64,000 nucleotides of DNA from Candidatus Omnitrophota bacterium. GTDB lineage: Bacteria; Omnitrophota; Gorgyraeia; JAGLLT01. A model generated the notes under the pieces. The model ran no database searches. It was given only the letters and a program-made list of their open reading frames with translations, and had not been told where the DNA came from. Both the position numbers and the translations under genes were made by a program. The DNA lies in assembly GCA_030632085.1 (NCBI GenBank), contig DAOVJY010000002.1, positions 248,319 through 312,318 on the forward strand, given 5' to 3'. Below, piece after piece: positions 89 through 39,769 of the stretch. Each line of letters opens with the position of its first letter. The first letter of the stretch is position 1.

Positions 89-140
89 GTATCCATTCAT
101 AGTAATTCCATTTGAACTGGAAATAAAAGGAAATAAAACA

Positions 141-1782: not shown

Positions 1783-1879
1783 AATTTGTATTAATTGTGG
1801 GATGATTTTTTGGATGCGTAGCAATAGAGGGTTGAAGCAGTGACATTGCGCAAGTTCAAAAATTAAAATTATGGGGGAA

Positions 1880-1915
1880 GTGGGAAGAAAGAGAAATAGG
1901 TATCGTATGTCCCGA
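1880..1915 (+). repeat. REP/TIR-like repeat copy (GAAGAAAGAGAAATAgGTATcGTaTGTCCC); near-identical to the copy at 14882-14916
   Basis: Direct comparison with 14882-14916 and with the MITE right ends. Confidence 0.6.
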
Positions 1916-2066
1916 TTTTCCATATTTATGTTGTAGTTTATAATAAAATATTTGACAAATGATACTACTGGTAGTAACATATAAGAGATAACTAAAACAA
2001 AGTGGTGCGTTCGAAGGGGGAACCTCCACGATAAAATAAGTAAAACCTTCGGAAGCGGAGGTTTTT

Positions 2067-2975: not shown

Positions 2976-3496
2976 AAGAAGGAGGGGTGGGAGGCAGCAA
3001 AACAAAAACTGGTCTCCACTTTGAATCTCGAGTAAGCCTTGAAAAAGTAATCTCCGCACTTCCGGGCTATACCATATCAGATGATAGGGTATTTTTTCAA
3101 GGTGTAAAAGTTGCTGAACTTTATCAAAAGCACAAATTATACAAAAATCTTCTTAAACCCAATCACATAGATTACTCAGTAATTATTTCTAAAAAACTAC
3201 TCCCAGATGAAGCTATATTAATATTAAAAGATAAGACATTATACATAATAGAAATTAAATTTCAAAAGGTTTCAGGGTCTGTTGATGAGAAGCTTCAGAC
3301 CTGCGACTTTAAGTGCAGGGAATATAAAAAACTTCTTGCTCCATTAGGCATATCCGTTGAATATGTATATATATTAAATGATTGGTTTAATAAAAAAGAG
3401 TACAAAAATGTTCTTAATTATGTTAAATCAGTTGGATGTCATTATTTTTTTAATGAAGTGCCGCTAGAATTTCTAAACTTGCCAAAACCTGAATAG
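2972..3496 (+). CDS. Putative cognate Type II restriction endonuclease (small PD-(D/E)xK-like protein)
   Basis: Start overlaps the MTase stop (ATGA coupling). 174 aa with a D...IIEIKFQK segment compatible with a (D/E)xK catalytic motif. No recognisable family, so the specificity is unknown. Confidence 0.4.
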   Translation: MKEGGVGGSKTKTGLHFESRVSLEKVISALPGYTISDDRVFFQGVKVAELYQKHKLYKNLLKPNHIDYSVIISKKLLPDEAILILKDKTLYIIEIKFQKVSGSVDEKLQTCDFKCREYKKLLAPLGISVEYVYILNDWFNKKEYKNVLNYVKSVGCHYFFNEVPLEFLNLPKPE

Positions 3497-3675
3497 TTTA
3501 AAGGGGAACCTTGTATGGTATTGCACCCTTCATTCACCCTTGAAGTAAAACTGATTAAATTAAGTAAAAATCACGAGAAAAATCATAATAGCCTTAGAAG
3601 AATTGTGATTGATTCTTTTGTGAAAGAAAAGCTGGGCATGGCAATGGCGAAAATAGGTGATGATTTTATTTAAAA

Positions 3676-3699
3676 GTAATTAAGTATTGTGTCCCCGGA
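3676..3699 (+). repeat. REP/TIR-like repeat (AATTAAGTATTGTGTCCCCGGAA), copy 1 of a direct pair about 105 bp apart
   Basis: Matches the MITE right terminus TTAAGTGTTCTGTCCCCGGAA with two substitutions. Confidence 0.65.
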
Positions 3700-3756
3700 A
3701 CTATACAGCTTTTCTCGGAGGGATTGTATTCCAGTCCCAATAAAGCAGGAATTAAG

Positions 3757-3800
3757 GGGACGGTTCTATTTTAAAATAATTAAGTATTGTGTCCCCGGAA
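3757..3800 (+). repeat. Composite repeat: GGGGACGGTTCTATTTT block followed by REP/TIR-like AATTAAGTATTGTGTCCCCGGAA (copy 2)
   Basis: The GGGGACGGTTCTATTTT block recurs at 8609 and, degenerate, at 15571. The REP part matches 3676-3699. Confidence 0.65.
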
Positions 3801-3981
3801 TTACGTAAAAAGAAATAAATGTGGAATGTGGAGACTTGACCCCCATTGTGCTCTATTTTACTGATTTGTGATTCATGATAAGAAATATGGAAAATTTTCT
3901 TTCTTTCCATCTTATAAGAAACACTTGACAAATTGCATCATTTAATGTATAAGAGAAAGAAGAAAGTGAGGTGTTCAAATA

Positions 3982-4872
3982 ATGGAAGATAAAGACCAGA
4001 TAAAAGGATTTTTTGTCGAAGATGAACAATCATTCAAAAAAGAACAAGTCTTATCTTTAATTAACAGATGTAAAAAATATGCCAAACTTGTAGGTAGAAA
4101 AGGGCTTGTTCATATTGAAAAGAAAAATTTAACAGGCACAGACCAAATAAAGCTTTTTTTAATAACACGGCATTTGGGTGCAGACTTGGCAAAGTTAGAG
4201 CCTAATTTAAAGATTCCTTCTGAGATTGCAGATGTGCATACTTCTGAAATGGCAAAATTGTTATCTGTCTCTAATGAAAATGCTAGGACTAGAGCATCTG
4301 ATTTAATTCGTGATGGATTTGGACGTAAACCAAAAAAAGGATACATACGAGTATATTCATATCAAATTAGTAAATTTTTAGATTTACTTGAAAAAGGTGA
4401 ACAAAAAAAGGAAAGAGCCGCCAATAAAAAAACTTCCATTAAAAAAAGAGGGGTAAGAAAAATAATTGAAAATCCGAAGCTCAATGTTGACCAAGCGTTT
4501 AAGCGATTGTCTATAAATTTAGATGGTATTTTAGAAAAAAAACTTAAAGATTGTATTTTTTTCCAAGAAGATGCAAGCTTTAAATTTAATAAGAATTTTA
4601 CGGGGAAATCAAAACATAGTAAACAGACTAGAGGAATTCTATGCGCAGCCTATGTAATGTCTATTGGTTTAGGTTTACAGAGTTTTTCTAGCCGACAGAT
4701 AAAGGATGTTTGTTTTAATAGTAACATTGATGTAATGGGCTTGAATTATGCAACACGAGAATTAAAGAAGAGTGGATATATTTCTAAAGCGAGTAAATAC
4801 TCGCAAGATAATATAATCCTAGAAAAAGGTAAAGATAAGGCAAAAGAGATATTTAATGAGTTATGTGAATGA
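3982..4872 (+). CDS. Hypothetical protein: probable central winged-HTH (SEIADVHTSEMAKLLSVSNENARTRASDLIRDGF), lysine-rich linker, unknown C-terminal domain
   Basis: Long ORF with an AAAGTGAGG RBS. First gene of a three-gene operon bounded by REP copies upstream and a MITE downstream. Confidence 0.55.
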   Translation: MEDKDQIKGFFVEDEQSFKKEQVLSLINRCKKYAKLVGRKGLVHIEKKNLTGTDQIKLFLITRHLGADLAKLEPNLKIPSEIADVHTSEMAKLLSVSNENARTRASDLIRDGFGRKPKKGYIRVYSYQISKFLDLLEKGEQKKERAANKKTSIKKRGVRKIIENPKLNVDQAFKRLSINLDGILEKKLKDCIFFQEDASFKFNKNFTGKSKHSKQTRGILCAAYVMSIGLGLQSFSSRQIKDVCFNSNIDVMGLNYATRELKKSGYISKASKYSQDNIILEKGKDKAKEIFNELCE

Positions 4873-4954
4873 TTAAAATGAAATTATTGTAATTAAATTT
4901 ATCTAAGAGATTGATGGCATATATTTATTAAGACGATGTCCAAAAGGAGGAAAT

Positions 4955-5524
4955 GTGAAAAATATTACTGAAATCGATGTGATGAAAATTATTGATGACC
5001 ATTTTTCAAAAATACAAGATCGAGAGGCAAAGAATAGGATTCTTCGTTGGGCATGGGAGAAATTCTCAACTCAAGAGCTGCCCTTAGAAAGTGAAGAAAA
5101 AACCAAACAGAAAGATTCTAAAAAGAAAAAAGCACCTAAGAAAAATAATAAACAAAAGAAAAAAGTTAAATCTGGTCCTTGTTTAGTTAAAGATTTAAAC
5201 TTGAGGCCTTCAGGGGAAACAACTTTTAAGCAATTTGTACAAGACAAAAACCCTTCATCAAACCAAGAGAAATGCTTAGTAGCTGCTTATTATTTAAAGC
5301 AAAAACTAAAGAAAAAGACAGATGTCGATTCGATTTATACATGTTTTAAGGATGCGAAATGGCGAGTTCCATCTAATTTGGAAAATACACTTTGTGTTGT
5401 TGCCGTCCAAAAAGGTTGGCTTGATACAACTGACTCTAACGCCATAACAATACCAACCTTAGGTGAAAATTATATAGAACATGATTTGCCCAGAAAAGTA
5501 AAAGGAAAAAATAATCATGGTTAA
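4955..5524 (+). CDS. Hypothetical protein with a long poly-lysine linker (KKKKAPKKNNKQKKKVK) between two small domains
   Basis: ORF with a GGAGG RBS. Overlaps the next gene by 8 nt. Confidence 0.5.
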   Translation: MKNITEIDVMKIIDDHFSKIQDREAKNRILRWAWEKFSTQELPLESEEKTKQKDSKKKKAPKKNNKQKKKVKSGPCLVKDLNLRPSGETTFKQFVQDKNPSSNQEKCLVAAYYLKQKLKKKTDVDSIYTCFKDAKWRVPSNLENTLCVVAVQKGWLDTTDSNAITIPTLGENYIEHDLPRKVKGKNNHG

Positions 5525-6296
5525 AAATGCTTTCAATTTAACAAATTTACTTGGCAGTATTCCAGTTACATTAAAAAATGAATTGGTAAAAACTTTTAAT
5601 GAAATTGCACGAAATTATCGAGAACAACGCTGGGAACCATCGGAGTTAAATGGAGGTAAATATTGTGAGGTTGTTTACACCATTTTAAAAGGGTATACTG
5701 AGGGAAAATTTCCTTCAAAAGCAAGCAAACCGAAGAATATGGTAGATGCTTGCAATAAATTTGAGCAAATTCCTTCATCATCATTTCCGAGGTCAGTAAG
5801 GATTCAAATTCCTAGAATAATCATTGCTCTTTATGAAATACGTAACAATAGAGGCGTGGGGCACGTTGGTGGCGATGTTGACCCAAATCATATGGATGCT
5901 ACAATTGTGCTTTATATGGTTAAATGGATTATGGCTGAGTTGATCCGTTTATTTCATAATGTTAACACTGATATTGCAACTGAAGCAGTAGAACGAATTA
6001 CAGATAGGACTTTGCCTATTTTATGGAAAGTTGGCGGAAAAATTCGTGTGCTTGATACTTCTATTAACATGACAGAAAAGACACTAGTTGTTTTATATTA
6101 TAATCGAGATTCAGTCGCCGAAAATTTATTGGTTGATTGGGTAGAATACACAAATCTTTCTGTATACTGTAGAGACATTTTGCGGAAAGCCCATAAAAAT
6201 AAATTAATTGAATATGATAAAGCAAATAAACAAGTCACAATATCTCCCAAAGGCATAAAATACGTAGAAGATAATATAAATTTGGAAAAATTTTGA
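5517..6296 (+). CDS. Hypothetical protein with a possible HEPN-like R-x6-H motif (IRNNRGVGHVGG)
   Basis: The Rx4-6H spacing matches the HEPN RNase catalytic motif. Located in a defence island. No further homology recognised. Confidence 0.4.
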   Translation: MVKNAFNLTNLLGSIPVTLKNELVKTFNEIARNYREQRWEPSELNGGKYCEVVYTILKGYTEGKFPSKASKPKNMVDACNKFEQIPSSSFPRSVRIQIPRIIIALYEIRNNRGVGHVGGDVDPNHMDATIVLYMVKWIMAELIRLFHNVNTDIATEAVERITDRTLPILWKVGGKIRVLDTSINMTEKTLVVLYYNRDSVAENLLVDWVEYTNLSVYCRDILRKAHKNKLIEYDKANKQVTISPKGIKYVEDNINLEKF

Positions 6297-6391
6297 CCTT
6301 CATGGCCGATTTAAAATGTTATACATGATTATAGAAAAGGATTTGTTTCCTTTTATATTCTTAAAAAAAGTTCTAAATATACTTCCGGCAT

Positions 6392-6720
6392 ACTTCCGGG
6401 GACAGAACACTTAATTGTTGAAAAGGCGTCATTGTTCTGATAGAATCTATGTATGGCAAGGATAGCGAGAATAGTTATTCCCAATCACCCTCATCATATA
6501 ATCCATCGCGGTAATCGCCGGGAAAAAGTTTTCTTTAGTGAAGACGACAAACAGGCTTACCTTTGTTTATTAACTAATCAGGCCAAGAAATCGGGAATAG
6601 AATTTTCTTTAGGGGATGAGAGATTTATTAAGAAGATTGAAGGAATTACCGGAAAGATATTGCAAAAAAATAGGCCGGGACATATGCAGAAAGATAGTTA
6701 AGTGTTCTGTCCCCCGAAGT
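6392..6720 (+). mobile_element. MITE-like element (about 320 bp) with about 23-bp terminal inverted repeats (ACTTCSGGGGACAGAACACTTAA) enclosing a 5'-truncated RAYT/IS200-like transposase remnant
   Basis: Left IR at 6392-6414 and right IR at 6698-6720 are reverse complements. The interior is 90% identical to the element at 10873-11198. Confidence 0.75.
6453..6701 (+). pseudogene. N-terminal fragment (82 aa) of a REP-associated tyrosine transposase (RAYT, IS200/IS605 Y1 family)
   Basis: MARIARIVIPNHPHHIIHRGNRREKVFF..DDK..YL.LL matches the RAYT N-terminus. It terminates long before the HuH/Y catalytic motifs. Confidence 0.7.
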
Positions 6721-6765
6721 CTATTGACTCACTGGAAGATAATTTGATAGTGGAGGATTCGGAAA

Positions 6766-7410
6766 ATGAGTGAGACTATACCTAAAGATCCCAAGATTTA
6801 TCATATTGTACATCTTGATAGATTGGAGTCGATTATTTCTAAACAGTATTTGTTAAGTGATACAGATGGTCAGCAATACGATTTGGACGGTACTACTATA
6901 GGAATGTCGAAAATAAAAGAACGAAGAATGTATAATAATTTTATGAATTATCCAGATCTTTGCGTAGGTGCATGTGTTCCTTTTTATTTTTGTCCACGAT
7001 CGATTATGTTATACATATTTTACGAGAATAATCATCCGGAGATTACGTATCGAGGAGGGCAGGAACCTATTGTTCATTTGGTAGCGGATTTACGTAAAAC
7101 AGTTACGTGGGCGGAATCTTTGGGCAAGCGCTGGGTATTTACTGATTCGAATGCAGGGTCATCCTATTTTAACGATTTTGCAAAATTAAACCAACTTAAT
7201 CAAATTGACTGGAACGCGTTAAGAGCAACATCTTGGTCAGCGGTTAAAGAAAAGAAGCAAGCCGAGTTTTTGATCGAAGAATGCTTTCCTTGGGAATTGA
7301 TAGAATGTATCGGTGTATATTCAATAGTGCAGTACCAACAGGTTGCTCAAGCACTCCAATCAGCAACACATCGACCACCCGTGAAGGTGATGCGTACCTG
7401 GTATTATTAG
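6766..7410 (+). CDS. darT: DarT, DNA ADP-ribosyltransferase toxin (DUF4433)
   Basis: IYHIVHLDRLESII...VPFYFCPRSIMLY...GGQEPIVHLV...FTDSN...EFLIEECFPWELIECIGVYS closely matches the DarT family. Confidence 0.85.
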   Translation: MSETIPKDPKIYHIVHLDRLESIISKQYLLSDTDGQQYDLDGTTIGMSKIKERRMYNNFMNYPDLCVGACVPFYFCPRSIMLYIFYENNHPEITYRGGQEPIVHLVADLRKTVTWAESLGKRWVFTDSNAGSSYFNDFAKLNQLNQIDWNALRATSWSAVKEKKQAEFLIEECFPWELIECIGVYSIVQYQQVAQALQSATHRPPVKVMRTWYY

Positions 7411-7425
7411 AAGGAGGAATGAAAT

Positions 7426-8484
7426 ATGATTATATTTAAAACAGGTAATCTTTTGACCGAAGACGTAGAAGCAATTGTTAATACAGTTAATTGTGTTGGT
7501 ATTATGGGACGAGGAATTGCGCTTCAGTTCAAAAAAAGGTTCCCGGAAAATTTTAAAGTATACGCAGCAGCCTGTAAAAAAAAGGCGATTCTTCCCGGTA
7601 AAATGTTTGTTTATAAGACTGACTCACTTATAAATCCAAAGTATATAATCAGTTTCCCTACAAAGCGGCATTGGCGTGGAGCCAGCAGAATGGAAGATAT
7701 TGAGAATGGTTTGCAGGATTTGGTTAAAGTCATTAAAGATTTGAAGATTCAATCCATCGCCCTACCTCCGCTAGGGTGTGGGCTTGGGGGCCTTGATTGG
7801 AATACGGTACGCGTACGGATTGAATTTGTCCTGAATGAGTTGCGCGATGTCGATGTTGTTGTTTTTGAGCCAAAAGGGGCTCCGACTCCTGAAGAGATGG
7901 TAAAAAACAGGAAAGTACCTAAAATGACTCCTGGGCGCGCAGCATTGGTAGAACTGATGCATCGTTATTTTTTAGGGCTTCTTGATCCCTTTATAACGCT
8001 CCTGGAAGTACACAAATTGATGTATTTCCTTCAAGAAAGCGGAGAGAGCCTTCGTTTACAGTACGCAAAAGCACCATATGGTCCATATGCGAAAAATCTT
8101 CGCCATGTGCTCAATGCTATAGAAGGCCATCTCATTTTTGGTTACGCCGACGGAGAAGATAAGCCGGATAAGCAACTCAAGCTGGTGCCTGGTGCTTATG
8201 AAGATGCGACACGGTTTCTTAATGAGCACAAAGGAACTAAGGAACATTATGACAAAGTATCTGATCTTGTAGACGGATTTGAGACTCCTTTTGGTATGGA
8301 ATTATTATCAACAGTGCATTGGGTAATAACAAAAGAATCAGCACATTCTTTTAGTGAACTTATTACGAAGGTATATGATTGGAATAAGCGCAAGAAGCAG
8401 TTTTCTCAGCGACAGATTCAATTAGCCGTCAAGGTGTTAGAGCAAAAAAAATGGATTAATATTACGAATTGGAGTGAAGTTTAA
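7426..8484 (+). CDS. darG: DarG antitoxin: N-terminal macrodomain (ADP-ribosylglycohydrolase) plus C-terminal DarT-neutralising domain
   Basis: AIVNTVNCVGIMGRGIALQFKKRFPE is a macrodomain signature. Sits immediately downstream of darT. Confidence 0.85.
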   Translation: MIIFKTGNLLTEDVEAIVNTVNCVGIMGRGIALQFKKRFPENFKVYAAACKKKAILPGKMFVYKTDSLINPKYIISFPTKRHWRGASRMEDIENGLQDLVKVIKDLKIQSIALPPLGCGLGGLDWNTVRVRIEFVLNELRDVDVVVFEPKGAPTPEEMVKNRKVPKMTPGRAALVELMHRYFLGLLDPFITLLEVHKLMYFLQESGESLRLQYAKAPYGPYAKNLRHVLNAIEGHLIFGYADGEDKPDKQLKLVPGAYEDATRFLNEHKGTKEHYDKVSDLVDGFETPFGMELLSTVHWVITKESAHSFSELITKVYDWNKRKKQFSQRQIQLAVKVLEQKKWINITNWSEV

Positions 8485-8580
8485 TGAATTTTAGTGATAT
8501 AACTGAAAAAGGGCTTGAGACAATTATCGTCGAGTCCCTGATAAACGATGCCGTTTATGTTCAGGGCAATAGTGTTTAAT
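8485..8580 (+). pseudogene. 31-codon ORF (MNFSDITEKGLETIIVESLINDAVYVQGNSV*) resembling the N-terminus of restriction-enzyme/helicase subunits; likely a gene remnant
   Basis: Starts on the darG stop. The E..ii..L.....GY pattern is typical of restriction R-subunit/helicase N-termini. Truncated at a REP-like CTTCCGGGTG tandem. Confidence 0.3.
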
Positions 8581-8608
8581 ACTTCCGGGTGCTTCCGGGT
8601 GAGGAAAA

Positions 8609-8645
8609 GGGGACGGTTCTATTTTTTAAAAAAATTGGCAGGAAA
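8609..8645 (+). repeat. Intergenic repeat GGGGACGGTTCTATTTTTTAAAAAAATTGGCAGGAA
   Basis: Recurs at 15571-15636 (with a short insertion) and partially at 3757-3773. Confidence 0.6.
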
Positions 8646-8682
8646 TGCCTTTTGTCCGATAGAAAAAAAGGAGAGTGGCATT

Positions 8683-9048
8683 ATGGTTATATTGGTTAAA
8701 TCGTTTGGTATTCTCATGGTAGCCCTTGGAGCTATTTTCCTGGCCAGGCCGGCTGGGATGAAAAACTACATAGCTTTCTGGGTGAAAGGAAAGAGGATTT
8801 ACACAGGCGCTGCTTTAAGTCTTATAATAGGTATTATCTTTTTGCTTGCCGCTTCAGGATGCAAGGTCGGTTGGTTTGTAGCGGTATTTGGCGTTCTGGC
8901 GTTTATCAAAGGCATTGCGCTGTTTGTCCTTGGACAGAAAAAGATAATGTCCATGATGAAGTGGTGGCAGGGAAGGTCGCTTTCATTTCTACGCTTCCAT
9001 GCCCTTTTAGCCTTAGCCGCCGGCGCCCTGCTTATCTACGCTGCATAA
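8683..9048 (+). CDS. Small integral membrane protein (about 4 TM helices)
   Basis: Hydrophobic segments. AAAGGAGAG RBS 7 nt upstream of the ATG at 8683, so the ORF-track start at 8548 is unlikely. Confidence 0.5.
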   Translation: MVILVKSFGILMVALGAIFLARPAGMKNYIAFWVKGKRIYTGAALSLIIGIIFLLAASGCKVGWFVAVFGVLAFIKGIALFVLGQKKIMSMMKWWQGRSLSFLRFHALLALAAGALLIYAA

Positions 9049-9071
9049 ATATGCAATTCAGGACAAATTCA

Positions 9072-9090
9072 GGGGACACAATATTTAATT
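9072..9090 (-). repeat. REP/TIR-like repeat in inverted orientation (GGGGACACAATATTTAATT)
   Basis: Reverse complement matches AATTAAATATTGTGTCCCC. Confidence 0.55.
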
Positions 9091-9209
9091 ATTGACTTTT
9101 CAAATAGATAAGTATTGCGAGTGGGGGGAGTCCTGAGTATTTTTGAAGGGCATACCTAAATTTTTGTAAGTCCCAAAATGATGCGTTTCTAATTTTTTAA
9201 GGATGGAGT

Positions 9210-9482
9210 ATGGAGAAGGATTTAATAAATATAAAAGCAAGTGAAATTGCCGACTTTGAGTATTGTGAAGTTAGCTGGAGTTTTTCTAATATGCAACAGG
9301 GCGATGTTCAGATAGCTAACTTAAAAAAGGACTTTGCCAAGGGGAGTGTTGCTCATCAAGAACATATTCGAGCAGAAGAGGCGCTAAGTCAACTTATTCG
9401 TTATAAGAATCATGCTAAAGTTATCTTTATTCTATTTGCTTTAGGATTCCTAGTCTATTTACTTTACTTAGTGTGGAGATAA
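9210..9482 (+). CDS. Cas4/RecB-like nuclease, N-terminal half (first Fe-S cysteine, motif I region) ending in a TM helix
   Basis: ASEIADFEYCEVSWSF matches the Cas4 N-terminal S..l..f.yC motif, followed by KGSVAHQEHI (G..H). C-terminal hydrophobic helix FILFALGFLVYLLYLVW. Confidence 0.6.
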   Translation: MEKDLINIKASEIADFEYCEVSWSFSNMQQGDVQIANLKKDFAKGSVAHQEHIRAEEALSQLIRYKNHAKVIFILFALGFLVYLLYLVWR

Positions 9483-9483
9483 G

Positions 9484-10005
9484 ATGTCCATTGTGTTGAC
9501 AATTCTAATATTAGGTTGTTGCGCGCTTTTTTTATATATCTTAATTAAATCATTAATTAACGATAGAAATATAATCTATGTTGGCGATAAGAACAAAGTT
9601 TTAGTATATAATGAGGGAGATATAAGGATTATTGGAAGACCCGATTATATAAAAAGGGAAGAGAATAATTATGTCGCATACGAATATAAGAGCCTAAAAA
9701 TAAAATCCAAAAATGCCTATTTGGATCATAAGTTGCAATTAGCGTGCTATATGCGACTGGTAGAAAAGACCTTTAAACAGAAGCCTGATTATGGAATAAT
9801 TACTTATGGAAACAAGAGAAGATTTAAAATTAGTAATACTTTGGAACTACAGCAGAAATTGGATAAGAGAATCGACAGGCTTAAAGAGCTAAAAACTGGA
9901 AGAGCCGTGCCTGTTAGAAGCCATAATGTGTTTGAGAAATGCTTTGCTTGTAAGTATTATCCTATCTGTAAACACCGATTAGGGAAAAAGAAAATGGAGG
10001 GTTAA
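9484..10005 (+). CDS. Cas4/RecB-like PD-(D/E)xK nuclease, C-terminal half: TM helix, motif II (GRPDYI), motif III (EYK), QhxxY (QLACY), and a C-x2-C-x5-C cluster
   Basis: The motif order and the CFACKYYPIC spacing match the Cas4 4Fe-4S/DUF83 family. Starts 1 nt after the upstream stop, in a different frame. Confidence 0.65.
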   Translation: MSIVLTILILGCCALFLYILIKSLINDRNIIYVGDKNKVLVYNEGDIRIIGRPDYIKREENNYVAYEYKSLKIKSKNAYLDHKLQLACYMRLVEKTFKQKPDYGIITYGNKRRFKISNTLELQQKLDKRIDRLKELKTGRAVPVRSHNVFEKCFACKYYPICKHRLGKKKMEG

Positions 10006-10006
10006 A

Positions 10007-10405
10007 GTGATAATACCAAATGAAGTAAAAAATTTATTTGATAAACAGTCTTTAGTTGCCTTTGGCACCGCGGACAAGCAAGGAAATCCAAATGTTGTTC
10101 CTATATTCTGGAAAGAGATCATCGATGGGGAAAGAATTTTGTTAATCGATAATTTTATGAAGATGACCAAAAAAAACCTTTTAGAAAATGGCAATGTTTG
10201 CCTGGCTTTTTGGGATTCAAAAACAAATGAGGCTTATAAGATTGAGGGGGAAGCTGTCTACTATGCACAAGGTTCGATTTATGAACAAGGCAAAAAATTT
10301 ATACAATCAAAAAAACCAGCAGCAATTCCAAAAGGAGTTGTTGAAATTAAAGTAAAAGAAATTTACACTATAAAACCGGGTTCCGACGCGGGTAAAAGAT
10401 TATAA
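10007..10405 (+). CDS. Pyridoxamine 5'-phosphate oxidase-like FMN-binding split-barrel protein
   Basis: LVAFGTADKQGNPNVVPIFW...ERILLIDNFM..TKKNLLENGNV is typical of the PNPOx-like family. Confidence 0.55.
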   Translation: MIIPNEVKNLFDKQSLVAFGTADKQGNPNVVPIFWKEIIDGERILLIDNFMKMTKKNLLENGNVCLAFWDSKTNEAYKIEGEAVYYAQGSIYEQGKKFIQSKKPAAIPKGVVEIKVKEIYTIKPGSDAGKRL

Positions 10406-10900: not shown

Positions 10901-11198
10901 AAAAGGTGTTGTTGCTTTGATAAAATCTATGTATGACAAGGATAGCGAGAATAGTTGCTTCCAATCACCCCAATCATATAATCCATCGCGGCAATCGCCG
11001 GGAAAAAGTTTTCTTTAATAAAGATGACAAACAGGTGTATCTTCGTGTATTAACTAATCAGGCCAAGAAATCGGGAATAGAATTTTCTTTAGGGGATGAG
11101 AGGTTTATTAAGAAGATTGAAGGAATTACCGGAAAGATATTGCAAAAAAATAGGCCGGGACCTATGCGGAAAGATAGTTAAGTGTTCTGTCCCCGGAA
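10873..11198 (+). mobile_element. Second copy of the RAYT-derived MITE, with terminal inverted repeats
   Basis: About 90% identical to 6392-6720. IRs GGGGACAGAACACTTAA / TTAAGTGTTCTGTCCCC. Confidence 0.75.
10933..11181 (+). pseudogene. RAYT/IS200-like transposase N-terminal fragment (82 aa), copy 2
   Basis: MTRIARIVASNHPNHIIHRGNRREKVFF... is identical in architecture to the fragment at 6453-6701. Confidence 0.7.
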
Positions 11199-11751: not shown

Positions 11752-12342
11752 ATGACTAAAACAGATATTTTGCTTATGTTATTATTTTCAGATAGAGCTG
11801 CTCCGATAGTAGGTACAACCCGCTTACAAAAGCTCTTATTTCTGAGCGAACACGAAAGTGAAGTTAAGTGCGATAAGGAATCTTTTAATTTTGAAGCCTA
11901 CAAGTTTGGGCCAGTGTCTAAAACGCTATACGACGATATTGAGTTTTTAGTAAACGTAGGTTTTTTAGAAAAAACTGGAGAGGACGCAAGTATTGATATA
12001 TATTCTTTAGATGACTTAGATAGTATTAATGTTGAAAATTTAATTGAAACTTCAGAAAACGAAAAAGTAGACCTAATTAGCGAAAAGGAAGAAGGAATAT
12101 TTTCAGAAGATGACGATGAGAACAAAGCTACCACAGAAGATGATCTGACAGTTTATAAAATCACAGATAAAGGTATTGGATACCTAAAAGAAAATAATCT
12201 AATAGGAGCAAAAGAAGCCAAAGAAATAGAAAATATAAAAAAGCGCTATGGAAAGAAATCTCTTATTGAATTATTGCGATATGTATATATGAAATATCCA
12301 AAATATACTACTGAGTCAGAAATAAAAGATGAATTATTATGA
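11752..12342 (+). CDS. Panacea-domain (DUF4065, SocA-like) putative antitoxin PanA with an acidic C-terminal extension
   Basis: TTRLQKLLFLSEHE...FEAYKFGPVSKTLYDDI matches the Panacea signature (KLQKLLYyaq...w.yGPv). Confidence 0.65.
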   Translation: MTKTDILLMLLFSDRAAPIVGTTRLQKLLFLSEHESEVKCDKESFNFEAYKFGPVSKTLYDDIEFLVNVGFLEKTGEDASIDIYSLDDLDSINVENLIETSENEKVDLISEKEEGIFSEDDDENKATTEDDLTVYKITDKGIGYLKENNLIGAKEAKEIENIKKRYGKKSLIELLRYVYMKYPKYTTESEIKDELL

Positions 12343-12884
12343 GTAATGGAAATAAAGAATTCAGTAATATTGGATTTATGCTATCTATTTTTGGGCCTAG
12401 TGCTATTTCTGCAATGTTTGCAATAATTACAAAACCACTCACTGAAAAATCAACCTTTGATGCTTTACGTAAAAACTTTCTAGAAACAATACGATTTCGC
12501 ATGGCTGCCGAGATAGCAGTGATGTTGCCTCCAAAGACAGGAAGAACGGTGAATGATGATTATGTTTCAATGTGTAAAACAAAACTAAATGAATATTTCG
12601 CAAATAATTCTGTTTTGTTGGTTGATTTTTTATACTCGGAAAAGTTATATATGTCCTACGGAAAGCTTTTTATTATATTTAAATACGCTATAGTGCTAAT
12701 TCCAGTGGTAGCTATCTTATGCGGCATCATATTGATTATCTATTTTCGTGATACGCTCAGTATAAAAAATTGTGGATTGTTTGTGTTTTTTTCTCTAGTG
12801 TTTGTTTTTGCAACTTGGCTTTTTAAAGAGCGTCGGCGAGATCAATACAGTGATTTATGTTCAAAATATGAAGTGGTTAAATAG
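12339..12884 (+). CDS. Membrane protein (N-terminal soluble part plus 2-3 TM helices); candidate PanT-type toxin partner
   Basis: ATGA start/stop overlap with the Panacea gene. Hydrophobic helices at residues about 108-170. Confidence 0.4.
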   Translation: MSNGNKEFSNIGFMLSIFGPSAISAMFAIITKPLTEKSTFDALRKNFLETIRFRMAAEIAVMLPPKTGRTVNDDYVSMCKTKLNEYFANNSVLLVDFLYSEKLYMSYGKLFIIFKYAIVLIPVVAILCGIILIIYFRDTLSIKNCGLFVFFSLVFVFATWLFKERRRDQYSDLCSKYEVVK

Positions 12885-13310
12885 GTGACTATTAACACTA
12901 AGTCAAATCCTTCTGAAAAAAAGATAGTAGCAGCGGTGGCTAAATTATTGCGGAAAAATGGGTATATAAATCAAAAAACTGAGGCCCAGATCTGTGAAAG
13001 ATTCATTGATTTAGTCTGTTGGGATAAAAGAAAGAAAAAGATTGTTGCTGTAGAGGCAAAGGTAAAGGCCCCATCAAAAGCATTTGAGCAGGCAATGCGA
13101 TATAGATATGTTGCAGATCATGTGTATGTTGCAATATTGAGAAATGGGTGTAATAAGAGAGCGATAGAATTGTCAGATAGAACTGGAATTGGATTAATTT
13201 TCGTAAGACGCGACTCATTAGAACGTTATTATGCAAAGATAGAAATAGAACCTGTCAAGTCTGAGTTAAAAAACGAAAAGCTTGCAAAGTATTTTTTTAG
13301 TGATGTTTAG
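12885..13310 (+). CDS. Hjc/Mrr-like PD-(D/E)xK nuclease-fold protein (141 aa)
   Basis: E...L...GY...FIDLVCW...IVAVEAKVK reproduces the archaeal Holliday-junction resolvase Hjc motif order (E, D, ExK). GTG start abuts the upstream stop. Confidence 0.45.
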   Translation: MTINTKSNPSEKKIVAAVAKLLRKNGYINQKTEAQICERFIDLVCWDKRKKKIVAVEAKVKAPSKAFEQAMRYRYVADHVYVAILRNGCNKRAIELSDRTGIGLIFVRRDSLERYYAKIEIEPVKSELKNEKLAKYFFSDV

Positions 13311-13331
13311 ATTATAGTGTTGGAGGTTGTT

Positions 13332-14744
13332 ATGGAGAAAAGTTTCTTATTAAGAATTGGTTCTAATGCAGAAAAGCAATATGTAAAAAAAATGGGGTCA
13401 CTTTTTTCAGGATTGGTGGTTAGAGCGAACTATTTTGAATCTGCGCCCGGAATGTTAAGTGCATTATTTTTAAAATTTGATTCTTTAAATCCATCAAAAG
13501 GATTTATTATTGATCCCGTCACGTATGTTTTTATGCTTGACTCAAAATATATCAGAAGCTGGCAAAAGATTAATGGGGAGAAATCGGAGGAAAAAATAAG
13601 AAAAGATTTACATATAGATGTTTCAGAAAATGTCCCAAATGAGTGGGTGCGTACAATACAAGATCCTACCGAAAAGCAAAAAAATAAAGTTGAAATCTAT
13701 AATATAAAAAAGGCTTATCGTAAATTAGCAGATTCCTATTTTACTCCTAACATGGCCCATGAAATAGGGAAACGGTCACTTGTCAAGGAAGATTTTAGTG
13801 AGCAAGATATACGTGAATTTGTAATGAAAGTGATCAATTACCAAGTGCAGGCGATTAGTACGCGGTATGATACAGCAAAATATTCCGATTTTAAAGCTAT
13901 TGTTCCACGCCCGCTGATGATACTTTCGCCCTATTTTTTGATAAGAAATCAAAGTGATTTAGACTTTATGGAAAGAATATGGAAGCGATTTGATTCCCAA
14001 TATACCAGAGATGATGGGGCCATTGTAGTACATTGTGCGGCAGAATTTTTTGAGATTAATTATCGGTCAATTTTAGAAGTTGTAGCTAAATTGAGTAAAA
14101 AAAATATTTTTTTGTGGATTAATAAATTTGACGAAAAAAAAGTTTCATCTACTCAACTTGATGGATATATAAAATTTGTAAGCAGTGCATATGATCAGGG
14201 CATAAGTGTAACTAACCTGTATGCGGGGGGATTATCCTCTTTTCTTTTTCCATTTGGTCTTACTGGAATGGTAAATAATATAGGATATGGTTTGCAGCGT
14301 GATGCTGAACCAGTTCAAGGAGGAATACCAACAGCTCAATTTTATATACCTAAATTACATATTCGCGCACAGGTTTTAGCAACTTACGATTTATTAGTAA
14401 AAAATGAATTAGGCGGTACAGCAAAAGACTTTTATCGTAACGTTTGTTCTTGTCCGATATGTAAAAAAGGAATCCGCGAGGAATTAAGCGATTTTATCAG
14501 TTTTTATGGTGAAGCGGATTATCCTAAAAGCAATTCAGAAAGCTCACGAAAGTATCCAACATCAAAAGCATTAAAGCGATGTTTTTTCCATTTTCTTTTT
14601 TCTAGATTGAAAGAATACAAATGGGCGATAAAGGCAAGTAAGCAGGAAGCAATAGATTTGCTAGATAGCGAAATAGCTTTATGGCGTACCGATAAAGATC
14701 ATCTTCAGAGGATGAGAGATGCGTTAGATGCAATAGCAAAATAG
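13332..14744 (+). CDS. Hypothetical 470-aa protein with a CSCPIC (CxCxxC) motif and a downstream His. The start at 13332 follows a GGAGG RBS.
   Basis: Long ORF, last gene of a four-gene operon. The CxCxxC...H spacing resembles the Zn site of TGT/DpdA-like transglycosylases; this is a weak inference. Confidence 0.5.
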   Translation: MEKSFLLRIGSNAEKQYVKKMGSLFSGLVVRANYFESAPGMLSALFLKFDSLNPSKGFIIDPVTYVFMLDSKYIRSWQKINGEKSEEKIRKDLHIDVSENVPNEWVRTIQDPTEKQKNKVEIYNIKKAYRKLADSYFTPNMAHEIGKRSLVKEDFSEQDIREFVMKVINYQVQAISTRYDTAKYSDFKAIVPRPLMILSPYFLIRNQSDLDFMERIWKRFDSQYTRDDGAIVVHCAAEFFEINYRSILEVVAKLSKKNIFLWINKFDEKKVSSTQLDGYIKFVSSAYDQGISVTNLYAGGLSSFLFPFGLTGMVNNIGYGLQRDAEPVQGGIPTAQFYIPKLHIRAQVLATYDLLVKNELGGTAKDFYRNVCSCPICKKGIREELSDFISFYGEADYPKSNSESSRKYPTSKALKRCFFHFLFSRLKEYKWAIKASKQEAIDLLDSEIALWRTDKDHLQRMRDALDAIAK

Positions 14745-14973: not shown

Positions 14974-15537
14974 GTGGAAAATTCACTTCAAGCAAAGACA
15001 TATAATACATTAGCCATTGTTAGTTTGTTTCTTAGTTTACTTATCTTTATTCCGCTTACAGGATTGGCTGGTTTAGTAGTGGGTATAATTGCTCTAGCTA
15101 AAATCTCGAAATGTAAAAAAGAACTTACTGGTCAAGGTTTGGCTATTGCAGGCACGATAATTGGTGGCATCAGAACAGTCTTATTACTAGTACTTGTCAT
15201 AGGTTTCTTTGCAGGTCTTATAGGACCAGGTATTCAGTCGGCAAAAACAGAAGCATTAGAAGTGCAAGCAGCAAGCAATTTAAGACAAACTGGCATTGCT
15301 CTATATGCCTACGCAAAAAATCATGAAGGTAATCTACCTGAAAAACTTTCTGAACTAAATGATGCTGGTTATATTGATGATGCGAGTATAGGCATTTTAT
15401 ATGATAATTTTCAACAGGGGTATTTTTGTGGCGATAAAAATCTTTATCGTATGGCGGAGGAAGATATACTGATTAAAGACACAAAATACAATATTAACCT
15501 CTATGCCAACGGAAGCGTTGGCCCTTCCCACCATTAA
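14974..15537 (+). CDS. Membrane-anchored protein with a pseudopilin/DUF1559-like segment (SNLRQTGIALYAYAKNHEGNLP)
   Basis: Two N-terminal TM helices, then the NLRQIGLAL.mY motif typical of DUF1559 / type II pseudopilin-like proteins. Confidence 0.5.
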   Translation: MENSLQAKTYNTLAIVSLFLSLLIFIPLTGLAGLVVGIIALAKISKCKKELTGQGLAIAGTIIGGIRTVLLLVLVIGFFAGLIGPGIQSAKTEALEVQAASNLRQTGIALYAYAKNHEGNLPEKLSELNDAGYIDDASIGILYDNFQQGYFCGDKNLYRMAEEDILIKDTKYNINLYANGSVGPSHH

Positions 15538-15570
15538 TAGTAAAAAAATAAAAGAAGGTGGCGAATTAAA

Positions 15571-15636
15571 GAGACGGTTCTATCCTATAACGGTAAAGCT
15601 ACGGTGGACAAGTTTTTTAAAAAAATTGGCAGAAAG
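15571..15636 (+). repeat. Degenerate copy of the GGGGACGGTTCTAT...TTTTTTAAAAAAATTGGCAGRAA intergenic repeat
   Basis: Compare 8609-8645. Confidence 0.5.
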
Positions 15637-15645
15637 ACACAATAA

Positions 15646-16158
15646 ATGAATATAAAATCAGGAGACATATTATTATTTAAAGCTGAAAAAGGTATATCCA
15701 GGCTCATTGCCTGGGGCACAAACAGCAAGTATTCGCATGTGGCGGTGTGTGTGTCGGCTGAGATGAACCTTGCTATAGAAGCTATGGCAGGTGGGGTGAG
15801 GGCGAGAGATATAAGAACGATAGAAGAGCCGTATGATATATATAGAATTAAAGAGGGACATAGTTATAATCTAAATAAGACTATTTCATTTCTGGTGAGT
15901 AAGCTGAATTTAAAATATGATTACTTAGGTGTATTTTTTCTTGGATTTATAAAGCTTATGTCAAAGATTGGCAAGCCGCTGAAAAAGGCGGCGAATAAGT
16001 GGCAGATAGACAGGGATTATTTCTGCTCGGAGTTATGCTATAAGGCTTTTTATAATGGCGGTAATCTGGATATTGTGCCTGATACTGATGAGGCAGATGT
16101 TACTTCGCCGGGTGATATTTCTAAAAGTTCCATAGTGGAACTAATAGCTAATGGCTAA
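15646..16158 (+). CDS. YiiX/YebB-like permuted papain-fold peptidase (C92 family)
   Basis: GDILLFKAEKGISRLIAWGTNSKYSHVAV and DYFCSELCYKAF resemble E. coli YiiX (GDIIFQ...WSHTGI; YCSELV). Confidence 0.5.
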   Translation: MNIKSGDILLFKAEKGISRLIAWGTNSKYSHVAVCVSAEMNLAIEAMAGGVRARDIRTIEEPYDIYRIKEGHSYNLNKTISFLVSKLNLKYDYLGVFFLGFIKLMSKIGKPLKKAANKWQIDRDYFCSELCYKAFYNGGNLDIVPDTDEADVTSPGDISKSSIVELIANG

Positions 16159-16188
16159 TAGCTAAGAGCGTACGAATGGAGATATAGA

Positions 16189-17316
16189 TTGAAATTTAAG
16201 GGTGCGGTAGTTGTTTTTATATTAACCCTTGCCGTAATTGGTGGGGGTTTTTGTTTTGCTGAGGATTTTTATTCGGCGCAGGTGCGCGATATATCCGATC
16301 GGGAATATGAGCAGGCTGTTATTGAGTTGATTGATAACGCCCAAGAGTCGATAGTTGTTGGGATGTACTATATCAGTACGCGGTTAAAGGCGAATAATCC
16401 GGTTAAGATGTTGTTGAATGATTTGGTTGAGGCCGAAGAGCGGGGCGTAGAGGTCAAAATATATTTAAATACAAAGTTTCCTGATGTGAGTTATGAAGAG
16501 CTTGTTGGTAGAGATGAATTTAAAAGGCTGCAGGATGCGGGGTGTGAGCTGTATTTTATTCCGCCGGGGCGTAAGCTGCACGATAAAGTTGTTGTTGTGG
16601 ATAGGCGTTATGTGGTTGAGGGGAGTATGAACTGGAGTATTGTAGCGCTCAAGAATAATTTTGAGTCGGTAACGCTGATTAATTCACCGGGGCTTGGTAA
16701 GGAGAAAATAGCAAGGTTAGAGAAGATTTATGAGATACAGAAGAAAAAGGAAGAGGATAAAGAAAGAGAACCTCTTTATATTGATAGTATCATTGAAAAA
16801 ATAGAGGTGAAAAAGGCTTTACTGGAGGATGAGAAGTATTTTCCGATGATGCTTAAGAGAAGTGACCGCAGGGCAATGGACCTGTATCTGATACTGCTTG
16901 CATATAGTAAGAAGTTGGATAAGATTGAGTTTTTCCTCAGATTAGAGGATGTTGGATTGGGACTGGGGTTGCCGGCGTCATGGGATGACGAAGCATTGAG
17001 GCGTCAGGTAATAAGGGCGTTGCGGACGCTGGAGAAAAAGTATAATCTTATAGAAGTTGAGTTTTATCATTCAAGTGACGCATATATAACCATTTTACCT
17101 ATTTTAGGAGAGAGTTTTGCGATAGAGACAAAGAGTATTGGCTCACGTGATAGAAAAATCCCTCAACGGGTTAAGTTTTTGCTCCTGATAAAGGCGCTTT
17201 TGGAGAAAGAGGGCAAGGACTTGGATTCGGTGCCGCAGAAAGAGATTATGCGGCGTTTTCATATCGCGGAGCGGACGCTGGAGAAAGCGATGAATTCACC
17301 AGAGGTGAATGGCTGA
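16189..17316 (+). CDS. Secreted/membrane-anchored phospholipase D-family protein with a single HKD motif (Nuc-like) plus an unknown C-terminal domain
   Basis: N-terminal signal/TM. LHDKVVVVDRRYVVEGSMNWS matches HxK(x4)D(x6)GSxN. Confidence 0.7.
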   Translation: MKFKGAVVVFILTLAVIGGGFCFAEDFYSAQVRDISDREYEQAVIELIDNAQESIVVGMYYISTRLKANNPVKMLLNDLVEAEERGVEVKIYLNTKFPDVSYEELVGRDEFKRLQDAGCELYFIPPGRKLHDKVVVVDRRYVVEGSMNWSIVALKNNFESVTLINSPGLGKEKIARLEKIYEIQKKKEEDKEREPLYIDSIIEKIEVKKALLEDEKYFPMMLKRSDRRAMDLYLILLAYSKKLDKIEFFLRLEDVGLGLGLPASWDDEALRRQVIRALRTLEKKYNLIEVEFYHSSDAYITILPILGESFAIETKSIGSRDRKIPQRVKFLLLIKALLEKEGKDLDSVPQKEIMRRFHIAERTLEKAMNSPEVNG

Positions 17317-18691: not shown

Positions 18692-19696
18692 ATGAATATG
18701 GAATGGAAAGATGTTCGCGGACCGGATGATATTATTGAGATGGGCAGGAAGAAAGTTGGCGATGTTGGAAAGTTTTTTCCGCTGGCGATTGTTGCCGTTG
18801 CCCTGTTGATTTTGATTGGGGGTTCAATTTATTCTATCGGCCCGGATGAGGTGGGCGTGATACAAAGATTTGGCCGATATAGTCATACTACTTCGCCCGG
18901 CTTGCATGTGAAACTTCCCTTTGGGATTGATAAACTAACTCCGGTTAAAATACAGAGAGTATTTAAAGAGGAATTTGGAATGAGAACTCTGCGCGCCGGG
19001 ATAAAGACGCAATACTCTTCCCGCTCATTTCTTGATGAATCTTTAATGCTTACCGGAGACCTCAATATTCTGGATGTACGCTGGATTGTACAGTTTAAGG
19101 TTAAAGACGCGATTAAACTTCTTTTTGAAACCAGAGACCCGGTGGATAATGTGCGGGATATTTCTGAGGTGGTCATGCGCCGGCTGGTGGGTGATTATCG
19201 TGTAGATGAGGTGCTTACCATAAGAAGAGAAGAGATAAACGACCTCGCGCAGATTGAGATGCAGAAGATACTTGATAGTTATAAGACGGGGATTCAGATT
19301 GTTACCGTCAAACTTCAGGATGTAAATCCTCCCGATGAAGTAAAACCGGCTTTTAATGAGGTGAACGAAGCTAAGCAGGAAAAAGAGCGGATGATTAACC
19401 AGGCCTGGGAGGCTTATAATAAGGTTATCCCTCGCGCTCGAGGTGAGGCGGAAAAAACCATTCGCGAGGCCGAAGGATATCGATTGGATAAGGTAAACCG
19501 GGCCAAGGGCGAGGCCGAGAGATTCTTAGATACATGGGCAGAATATAAAAAGGCACCTGAAATAACTCAGAAGAGGTTATATCTGGAAACAATGGTGGAA
19601 GTTCTGCCAAGGGCAAAAGAGAAATATATTGTCGATTCCGAGCAGACTTCGATTCTGCCATTATTGAATCTTGGTCAGATAGGGGGGAACCAATAA
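18692..19696 (+). CDS. hflK: HflK, FtsH protease modulator (SPFH/band-7)
   Basis: N-terminal TM plus an SPFH domain; GPDEVGVIQRFGRY matches HflK. Confidence 0.85.
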   Translation: MNMEWKDVRGPDDIIEMGRKKVGDVGKFFPLAIVAVALLILIGGSIYSIGPDEVGVIQRFGRYSHTTSPGLHVKLPFGIDKLTPVKIQRVFKEEFGMRTLRAGIKTQYSSRSFLDESLMLTGDLNILDVRWIVQFKVKDAIKLLFETRDPVDNVRDISEVVMRRLVGDYRVDEVLTIRREEINDLAQIEMQKILDSYKTGIQIVTVKLQDVNPPDEVKPAFNEVNEAKQEKERMINQAWEAYNKVIPRARGEAEKTIREAEGYRLDKVNRAKGEAERFLDTWAEYKKAPEITQKRLYLETMVEVLPRAKEKYIVDSEQTSILPLLNLGQIGGNQ

Positions 19697-20661
19697 TGAA
19701 GCTAATTTTAAGAATATCAGGGATTTTAGTAATTTTGGTAATACTTCTATTTTTAAGTGGTGCGGTGTATGTAGTTCGTGAGACCCAACAGGTGATAATT
19801 ACCCAGTTTGGCAAGCCTGTAGGGAAGCCGATTACCACTGCCGGGTTGCATTTCAAAAAGCCGCTTATACAGCAAATCCAGTATTTTGAGAAAAGGCTTC
19901 TGGACTGGGATGGTGACCCCAATCAAATTCCTACAAGAGATAAAAGGTATATATGGATTGACATTACCGCCCGCTGGCGAATTAGTGATGCTTTAAAGTT
20001 TTTGCAATCGGTGGGGACAGAAACTAGCGCGCACGCCAGGCTTGATGATATTATCAATTCCGCCACGCGTGATGCCGTTACTAATCAGCTCTTGGTTGAG
20101 GCGATAAGGAATACTAATCGCATTCTTGAGACTAAAGAGAAAGAAGATGAGGCCGTTGTAGTTACTAAAGAGGCGTTGGAGAAAATCAAAGTAGGACGCC
20201 AGGCTCTGGAGGGGAAAATTCTGGAAAGGGCTAAAATCCTTGCTCCTCAATACGGCATCGAATTGGTGGATGTGCGCATCAAGCGCATCAATTATGTGGA
20301 AGCGGTGAGAAAAAAGGTCTATGAGCGGATGATTGCCGAGAGAAAGCGGGCTGCCGAGCAATATCGTTCTGAGGGCCAAGGGAAACAGGCTGAGATTGAA
20401 GGCCAGATGGGTAAAGAATTAAAACAGATTACATCCCAGGCCTACCGCAAAGCTCAAGGTATCAGAGGAAAGGCGGATGCCGAGACAACCAAGATTTATG
20501 CTGACGCGTATAATAAGGATCCTTATTTTTATTCTTTCTTAAAAACATTAGAGACATACCGAAAGACGATTGATGAAAAGTCTACTATAATCTTAACAAC
20601 TGATAGTGATTACTATCGATATTTGAAAGGCCTTAAGTTTGAGTCAGGAGATAATAACTAA
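19696..20661 (+). CDS. hflC: HflC, FtsH protease modulator
   Basis: TM plus SPFH; VVRETQQVIITQFGKP. Immediately downstream of hflK. Confidence 0.85.
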   Translation: MKLILRISGILVILVILLFLSGAVYVVRETQQVIITQFGKPVGKPITTAGLHFKKPLIQQIQYFEKRLLDWDGDPNQIPTRDKRYIWIDITARWRISDALKFLQSVGTETSAHARLDDIINSATRDAVTNQLLVEAIRNTNRILETKEKEDEAVVVTKEALEKIKVGRQALEGKILERAKILAPQYGIELVDVRIKRINYVEAVRKKVYERMIAERKRAAEQYRSEGQGKQAEIEGQMGKELKQITSQAYRKAQGIRGKADAETTKIYADAYNKDPYFYSFLKTLETYRKTIDEKSTIILTTDSDYYRYLKGLKFESGDNN

Positions 20662-39661: not shown

Positions 39662-39739
<78 letters not shown>

Positions 39740-39769
39740 AATTAGCTAATGGCATATGGCTAAGGGCAA

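Follow-up and report, generated by a model that had tools for sequence, protein, structure and literature searches.

A stretch of 64,000 nucleotides from a Candidatus Omnitrophota bacterium (GenBank assembly GCA_030632085.1, contig DAOVJY010000002.1, positions 248,319 to 312,318 of the forward strand), hereafter the window, encodes on its plus strand, at positions 13332-14744, a protein of 470 residues with a cysteine and histidine arrangement reminiscent of tRNA-guanine transglycosylases (TGT). The question raised by this locus is what such a protein may be doing among defence genes. An earlier note on the same DNA had proposed a relative of DpdA, the DNA-modifying paralogue of TGT, supplied with substrate by 7-deazaguanine pathway genes of the window. 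Our analysis revealed that the gene, designated here D, is the fourth in a cassette, A-B-C-D (window 11752-14744), that recurs in bacteria and archaea. With about even confidence we regard D as a very divergent member of the TGT superfamily, distinct from both canonical TGT and DpdA, and as the signature gene of the cassette. It appears somewhat more probable that the cassette as a whole is a conflict system, serving immunity or acting in a toxin-antitoxin-like manner, rather than a housekeeping enzyme of queuosine or DNA modification.

The open reading frame (ORF) of D is real. It ends at position 14744 and may start either with a GTG at 13317 or with an ATG at 13332. The latter is the likely start, yielding the product of 470 residues, as it is preceded, with a spacer of 5 nt, by a Shine-Dalgarno sequence (GGAGG, 13322-13326, plus strand) and agrees with an independent gene call in the European Nucleotide Archive and with the N-termini of homologues. 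The product contains the two sequence elements that had drawn attention to it, namely CSCPICKKG, with C372, C374 and C377 (14445-14462), and FFHFLF, with H420. In an alignment of 146 members of the D superfamily, which share about 25% identity with the target, C372 and C377 were found in all sequences, C374 in 144 and H420 in 145, corresponding to a conservation of 99-100% across divergent proteins, and the motif is thus not a chance resemblance. E428, kept in 144 of the 146, is predicted to share a single long helix with H420 (residues 411-432 of the AlphaFold2 model; both residues within 14589-14615).

When the D superfamily was aligned to TGT with hhalign, the CxCxxC element fell exactly on the CDCYTC of TGT. 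Together with the conservation pattern, this suggests that the three cysteines provide three of four zinc ligands and that H420 is presumably the fourth. The corresponding ligands of Zymomonas mobilis TGT are C318, C320, C323 and H349. The ligand histidine is H333 in E. coli Tgt (a 16-residue offset from the Z. mobilis numbering) and lies in NTIHNL. The likeness of the motif to the TGT zinc site stands; the assignment of the histidine to RAYLHHL does not. The unusual spacing of the motif, also remarked upon in the earlier note, was evident as well, since the histidine follows the third cysteine by 43 residues in D and by 26 in TGT; the loop between C377 and H420 is modelled with lower confidence.

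Concerning the fold, the AlphaFold2 model of D, built from a 34-sequence alignment, has a mean predicted local distance difference test (pLDDT) score of 91.7 and a predicted TM-score of 0.90, and consists of alternating strands and helices. It forms a (beta/alpha)8 (TIM) barrel of TGT-type topology with a C-terminal zinc subdomain, and its nearest structural matches are TGT-family structures, so that the structural comparison called for by the note came out in favour of a TGT-like fold. On the strength of this model, it is very likely that D adopts the fold of the TGT structural superfamily. By hhalign, the N-terminal half of the D superfamily gave no alignment with TGT, and one part of the weak C-terminal alignment, in which GIPTAQFYIP is paired with GIDMFDCVMP, clashed with the strand count of the model and was not relied on. 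The likeness of D to TGT and DpdA hence holds for the fold and the zinc motif; it does not extend to a sequence-family match or, as described below, to the catalytic aspartates.

Three active-site aspartates, acting as general acid/base, in base recognition and as nucleophile, are invariant in both families, TGT and DpdA (PMC10164549). In the D superfamily only one conserved aspartate column was found. This residue, D61 (144 of 146 sequences), is followed by a proline, P62, present in all 146, and belongs to a D61-P62-x-T64 motif (13512-13523, plus strand) at the C-terminal end of barrel strand 3. The remaining conserved acidic columns are E268, located after barrel strand 6 (14133-14135, plus strand; glutamate in 140 of 146), and E428. 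For contrast, an alignment of eight TGT sequences keeps D89, D143, D261 and D264. The surroundings of D61, IIDPxTYVF, resemble LTDSGGFQVF of TGT, and D61 is a candidate counterpart of D102 of TGT and D95 of DpdA, a match based only on strand order in the model. At the end of strand 8, TGT carries its nucleophile in MFDCV; the corresponding segment reads MVNN in the target and V[SC]HG in most superfamily members, and no conserved acidic residue occurs there. Comparison of the sequences shows that, with D61 counted as the candidate acid/base, the D superfamily has lost two of the three canonical aspartates and with them the catalytic feature that defines TGT and DpdA. The earlier note had likewise been unable to place the catalytic aspartates; of the TIM barrel with aspartate nucleophiles for which it had advised looking, the barrel is predicted, D61 is the only conserved aspartate, and the nucleophile is absent.

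D is also remote in sequence from all named families. No Pfam, NCBIfam, PADLOC or PHROGs model matched it, those for TGT and DpdA included, and D together with 12 relatives gave no TGT or DpdA profile match at E<=1 or lower thresholds. Ten members of the second tier described below contained no Pfam domain. Searches of PDB sequences with D, with the D profile and with profiles of A and C returned nothing relevant, and the D profile found no TGT there; a scan of viral contigs with E. coli Tgt returned only close relatives. A word-indexed search of 5.8 billion proteins yielded only 35 unnamed relatives of 466-498 residues and one fragment, and a profile search of 1.84 billion cluster representatives retrieved 799 at E<=1e-3, 645 of them at E<=1e-10. 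The superfamily comprises two tiers, the first resembling the target and the second, which is larger, consisting of proteins of about 440-450 residues.

A three-stranded insertion of about 50 residues after barrel strand 3 (residues 75-125, 13554-13706, plus strand, as assigned by DSSP on the model) occupies the place that the lid has in TGT. It is confined to the clade of the target; second-tier and archaeal members have a short one or none. The clade, characterized by G300, N315 and L321, combines this lid insertion in D with an acidic disordered loop of about 50 residues in A, and both are absent from the two Nitrosopumilus copies (L025 and L026). In one relative of 520 residues, P0073, a B-like transmembrane segment is joined to D from about residue 126. 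A B-D fusion was weighed but set aside as unreliable, since the protein lacks the N-terminal 125 residues of D, the D61 region included; a chimeric gene call, a deletion and a real fusion are the three options for this protein.

The unit to which D belongs is the cassette. In related loci, D is preceded by genes for proteins of about 190, 185 and 145 residues, homologous to A, B and C of the window. Synteny of A, B, C and D was seen in 13 loci, which belong to Planctomycetota, Ignavibacteria, Armatimonadota, Bdellovibrionales and Nitrosopumilus, the carriers of the cassette being metagenome-assembled genomes of Phycisphaerales, Ignavibacteria, Armatimonadota and Bdellovibrionales as well as of the archaeon Nitrosopumilus, and the cassette also accompanies second-tier members of D at 25-30% identity. 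In a census of 80 metagenome loci, all flanking ORFs were clustered; the recurrent families were D (73), C (70), A (61) and B (58), and the next family was seen 3 times. C lies directly upstream of D in all 66 loci with enough sequence, and A, a transmembrane-containing B and C are all present wherever the upstream sequence spans 1,750 nt or more (54/54 loci). In the window, A and B overlap by 4 nt (ATGA), the start of C abuts the stop of B, and D begins 21 nt after C, a layout that indicates translational coupling. Since the four genes always occur together and are closely packed, mostly in overlapping or abutting frames, they probably constitute one functional unit. A scan for promoters and terminators gave nothing above chance.

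None of the four proteins has a name in public sources, and B, C and D belong to no Pfam, NCBIfam, PADLOC or PHROGs family. The literature searched (PDC-M19, TGT-like proteins with anti-phage, Panacea with transglycosylase) contained no description of the cassette. We regard D as a branch of the TGT superfamily that is new and lacks annotation, set in an operon whose architecture is likewise new. A variant was found in one locus (L033, 4748-8581), where D (474 residues) is followed by a SIR2-like protein of 447 residues that replaces B (Pfam SIR2_2, 3.3e-5; PADLOC SIR2, 7e-9), while C (141 residues) and A (187 residues) lie on the opposite strand, next to DUF4365/PDC-M02A-like and PLD genes. 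Such an exchange of a membrane effector for SIR2 is typical of immune systems.

Gene A (11752-12342, plus strand, 196 residues) encodes an antitoxin-type protein of the Panacea/SocA kind that resembles the C-terminal domain of DarG. Its Pfam match (E=2.7e-5) is 0.2 bit short of the cut-off, and on the whole we count it as a Panacea/DUF4065 member; PADLOC PDC-M19A matches it at 5.5e-16, and many of its 131 homologues are annotated as PF13274, 'YwgA' or 'SocA antitoxin domain'. Residues 1-77 and 130-190 are predicted with confidence, and the fold matches the toxin-binding domain of DarG; hhalign of A against the DarG of the window itself was not significant. The segment in between (residues 78-129, 11983-12138, plus strand) is a disordered loop with pLDDT below 50 that is missing from archaeal orthologues, and the net charge of residues 70-135 is -19.

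Gene B (12339-12884, plus strand, 181 residues) encodes a membrane protein in which one hydrophobic helix is N-terminal and two are C-terminal (segments 11-31, 106-142 and 139-164), a topology shared by its orthologues. No match was found for B in Pfam, NCBIfam, PADLOC or PHROGs, and its members form a single BLAST cluster in 58 of the 80 metagenome loci. By hydropathy, the topology is PanT-like; PanA antitoxins neutralise membrane-disrupting toxins with C-terminal transmembrane helices, and the pipeline that discovered them left out operons of more than three genes (PMC8832971). In two near-identical metagenome loci (L093, 3010-3572, and L094, 3855-4417) B appears split into two overlapping ORFs, possibly through a frameshift or as a pseudogene.

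Gene C (12885-13310, plus strand, 141 residues, net charge +13) appears to be a small basic PD-(D/E)XK nuclease. In 12 orthologues, archaeal ones included, E11, E33, D42, E57, K59 and Q69 are invariant, and the aligned catalytic D...ExK motif (D42, E57, K59) maps to 13008-13061 on the plus strand. The weak Pfam matches are to HSDR_N_2 (3.2e-4), NucS_C (3.4e-4) and Mrr_cat. As the core pattern E...D...(D/E)xK...Q is present, C is predicted from its sequence to be a nuclease.

How, then, does the proposal of a DpdA function fare? In that proposal D would be a DpdA-type DNA-guanine transglycosylase inserting preQ0 or some other 7-deazaguanine into the DNA of the host and C the cognate restriction nuclease, the two forming a compact Dpd-like restriction-modification (R-M) system fed by the queDCEF pathway of the host. 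The fold and zinc site of D are TGT/DpdA-like, D61 would correspond topologically to the general acid/base, a nuclease always adjoins D, and the host does encode queD, queC, queE and queF, which were found at 31069-33234 as the note had reported. We nevertheless consider the proposal quite improbable. D keeps only one of the three aspartates that are invariant in TGT and DpdA (PMC10164549) and has no conserved acidic residue at the end of strand 8, no TGT or DpdA hidden Markov model matches it, and genes A and B would be left unexplained. Furthermore, no DpdB-type ATPase stands beside D, the four recurrent families being the only ones and none of them an ATPase. Among PADLOC Dpd models, just a weak DpdK-like match was obtained, on a non-conserved PLD gene. 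No que or tgt homologue was present within 6-8 kb of the cassette in 15 genome or assembly loci and 80 metagenome loci (545 kb), the window contains no tgt or queA gene within its 64 kb, and with Rfam neither the window nor any of eight related loci gave a preQ1 riboswitch.

The que genes themselves lie in a housekeeping block 16 kb from D, which speaks against their role as a substrate route. They form a compact operon, queD-queC-queE-queF, with overlapping or abutting genes, and are surrounded by genes for a type II secretion system/type IV pilus ATPase, a murein amidase, a racemase, a fumarase and RNase PH.

Among the other explanations, one holds that D is a toxin acting on tRNA or rRNA, whose TGT-like base removal or exchange would block translation, with A as the antitoxin and B and C as accessory proteins. 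The nearest structures of D are indeed tRNA-modifying enzymes, A matches the toxin-binding domain of DarG, and Panacea antitoxins often neutralise toxins that target translation (PMC8832971). However, D has no aspartate nucleophile, and such an arrangement would leave no need for the nuclease and the membrane protein, both of which are strictly conserved, so we find it unlikely. It is less probable still that the cassette consists of two independent modules travelling together, a PanA/PanT-type pair (A and B) and a pair of nuclease and TGT-like protein (C and D). PanA with a membrane PanT is an established two-gene system, and in L033 A and C stand on the strand opposite to D; the four genes, though, were found together in 54/54 loci of bacteria and archaea, mostly in overlapping or abutting frames, and no lone A+B or C+D pair was seen, loci with A and B only not having been searched for systematically.

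The variable neighbourhood of the cassette bears on a further alternative, a housekeeping or repair operon in which D would be a divergent enzyme of nucleic-acid modification or repair, for example a glycosylase, working with a repair nuclease. Several copies do have housekeeping neighbours, among them UvrB, pseudouridine synthase, MraW and dnaX/recR. Yet the cassette occurs in 6 loci in 185,579 species, its neighbourhoods vary completely, and it combines an antitoxin-type A, a membrane protein B, a SIR2 variant and frequent R-M or mobile-element neighbours, all of which makes a housekeeping role very improbable in our view. Hardly credible, beside the barrel topology and the alignment of the zinc motif to that of TGT, is a convergent likeness, in which D would be a generic TIM-barrel enzyme (e.g., glycosidase-like) with an unrelated zinc ribbon.

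The evidence thus leaves a conflict system as the reading that we prefer. The 6 loci found among 185,579 species representatives are spread over bacteria and archaea, and this patchy distribution across domains indicates horizontal transfer; the neighbourhoods differ wholly from locus to locus. In L007 and L008 the cassette is located between a DpnII R-M system and a DUF4238 gene, on an element that also carries terminase and serine recombinase genes, beside tRNA genes, and in L004 an MmeI-type R-M system lies 4 kb away. In the window, the upstream region proved to be the defence island that the earlier note had recognized (87-10405), with AbiEi/AbiEii (87-1782), an N6/N4 DNA methylase with a small PD-(D/E)XK gene (2067-3496), DarT/DarG (6766-8484), a stand-alone Cas4-like nuclease (9484-10005) and a PNPOx-like flavoprotein (10007-10405).

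Several observations weigh against this reading of D and its cassette. The likeness of D to TGT is structural only, with Foldseek E values of ~1e-3 and TM-scores below 0.5, and comparing the D superfamily by hhalign with eight aligned bacterial TGT sequences yielded one weak local match, in the C-terminal part, with a probability of 8.9% (P=0.0037). At three positions that are otherwise well conserved, the clade of the target departs from about 80% of the superfamily (N315 for H315, L321 for E321 and G300 for Y/F300), so its activity may differ or be absent. The net charge of D ranges from +15 to -12 across members, which weakens the case for nucleic-acid binding. Many cassette copies stand among housekeeping genes with no defence neighbours (L001, L021, L024, L029), the SIR2 exchange was seen in one locus only, and tblastn of D against phage and plasmid collections found no match.

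If the cassette is indeed a conflict system, its working may be sketched as follows, although the division of labour among the four proteins is tentative. D would bind nucleic acid and accommodate one of its bases in a pocket made up of D61, Y201/F202, W262, E268, Y319 and Y338. Binding is suggested by the retention of the TGT fold and of the zinc subdomain, which Cap10, a TGT-like protein switched to a protein substrate, has lost. D might then sense the base or alter it chemically, by excision or exchange, presumably through non-canonical residues, given that the aspartate nucleophile is absent. One possibility is that D flips a modified purine out of the DNA, either recognises or excises it, and then passes the DNA on to C; the 7-deazaguanines by which phages evade restriction would be an example of such a base. 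C, whose catalytic motif is intact, would cut the nucleic acid marked or recognised by D. B may serve as a membrane-disrupting effector in the manner of abortive infection and, like SIR2 in the variant, as a back-up that kills the cell, as its topology, the PanT precedent and the one SIR2-for-B variant suggest. Finally, the Panacea/DarG-C fold of A points to a protein that would bind one toxic partner and restrain it until a trigger, presumably phage infection, is perceived. The cassette would then be an unrecognised immune system, comprising a TGT-fold sensor or enzyme with new chemistry, a PD-(D/E)XK nuclease and a membrane or SIR2 effector under a Panacea-type antitoxin; as a complete picture this is a possibility that we put forward with reserve.

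The surroundings of the cassette showed some further features. In the defence island, three consecutive genes (3982-6296; 296, 189 and 259 residues) without a Pfam match lie between the R-M pair and DarTG and could be another unrecognised defence system. The Cas4-like gene is preceded by a gene for a transmembrane protein of 90 residues (9210-9482), and no CRISPR array was found near it. Just upstream of the cassette, an ORF of 82 residues (10933-11181), which starts MTRIARIV...HIIHRGNRREKVFF, resembles, by eye, the N-terminal part of a transposase of the IS200/RayT type (Y1) and is possibly a scar of mobile-element activity. Downstream, at 14974-17316, genes for a DUF4190 membrane protein, a permuted papain-like amidase of the C92 (YaeF/YiiX) type and a PLD-family nuclease lie outside the cassette. 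The last of these (16189-17316, 375 residues; PLDc_2 9e-24, PADLOC DrmC 9e-17) has a C-terminal extension of ~190 residues; it was considered as a fifth component and rejected, as it is not conserved with the cassette. HflK/HflC-like genes (18692-20661) are found 4 kb downstream of the cassette and a Band-7/SPFH gene (L024, 5405-6190) directly upstream of the Bdellovibrionales copy, a proximity that is probably coincidental. Seven tRNA genes (Pro, Arg, His, Arg, Lys, Leu, Gly) occupy 39662-41214, all on the plus strand. Nearly all long ORFs of the window are on that strand too, its GC content is ~36%, and all 2-kb bins have a positive GC skew (0.08-0.33), a pattern that suggests strong strand bias in the genome and a window that falls entirely within one replichore.

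For a long time, enzymes of the TGT family were believed to serve tRNA only; DpdA, acting on DNA, and Cap10, acting on a protein-linked base, show that the fold has been reused in phage defence. D differs from each of these. Canonical TGT (PF01702; Z. mobilis 3unt and T. maritima 2ash) shares 9% identity with D, the Pfam model leaves D unmatched, and TGT has three invariant aspartates and a Cys-His spacing of 26, compared to one aspartate, a spacing of 43 and about 90 additional residues in D; the neighbours of TGT are queA and yajC, those of D an antitoxin-like protein, a membrane protein and a nuclease. DpdA (7ui4) keeps D95, D130 and D256, needs the ATPase DpdB and belongs to a large dpdA-K cluster (PMC10164549), while D has neither this three-aspartate set nor DpdB nor a dpd cluster, and matches no DpdA model of PADLOC or NCBIfam. 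The closest analogy is with QTRT2 (6fv5), the non-catalytic, zinc-bearing eukaryotic paralogue of TGT, and by this analogy D would work most like a base-binding module of the TGT superfamily. QTRT2, however, forms a heterodimer with a catalytic paralogue, and no second TGT-like gene accompanies D.

In type IV CBASS, Cap10 (9ntn) has lost the zinc site and the tRNA lid and kept the nucleophile, D248, together with the base-reading Asp/Ser; it binds an NDG-modified CD-NTase made by the QueC-like Cap9 (bioRxiv 10.1101/2025.04.06.647259). D presents the reverse situation, with the zinc motif kept, no nucleophile, and neither a CD-NTase nor a QueC-like neighbour. The BRC system, which also includes a TGT (PMC12839542), differs from the cassette in architecture. 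Known PanA/PanT loci in turn consist of two or three genes (PMC8832971), whereas in the present loci a nuclease and a TGT-like protein invariably accompany A and B, and A of the target clade, unlike PanA and the C-terminal domain of DarG, has the added acidic disordered loop of 50 residues. Characterization of the cassette could reveal a new activity of base recognition or base excision, or sensing coupled to nuclease and membrane effectors, as well as a possible new role of Panacea antitoxins in multi-gene systems, and it would provide four new families for annotation pipelines. The D family itself, whose 799 clusters at 50% identity span bacteria as well as archaea, forms a third, larger TGT branch that is not covered by domain or defence databases, having lost the canonical catalytic triad, kept the zinc module and become locked into a cassette with features of a conflict system. 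Should the proposed mechanism hold true, Dpd and type IV CBASS would be joined by a third case in which immunity draws on the TGT fold, distinct from both in mechanism.

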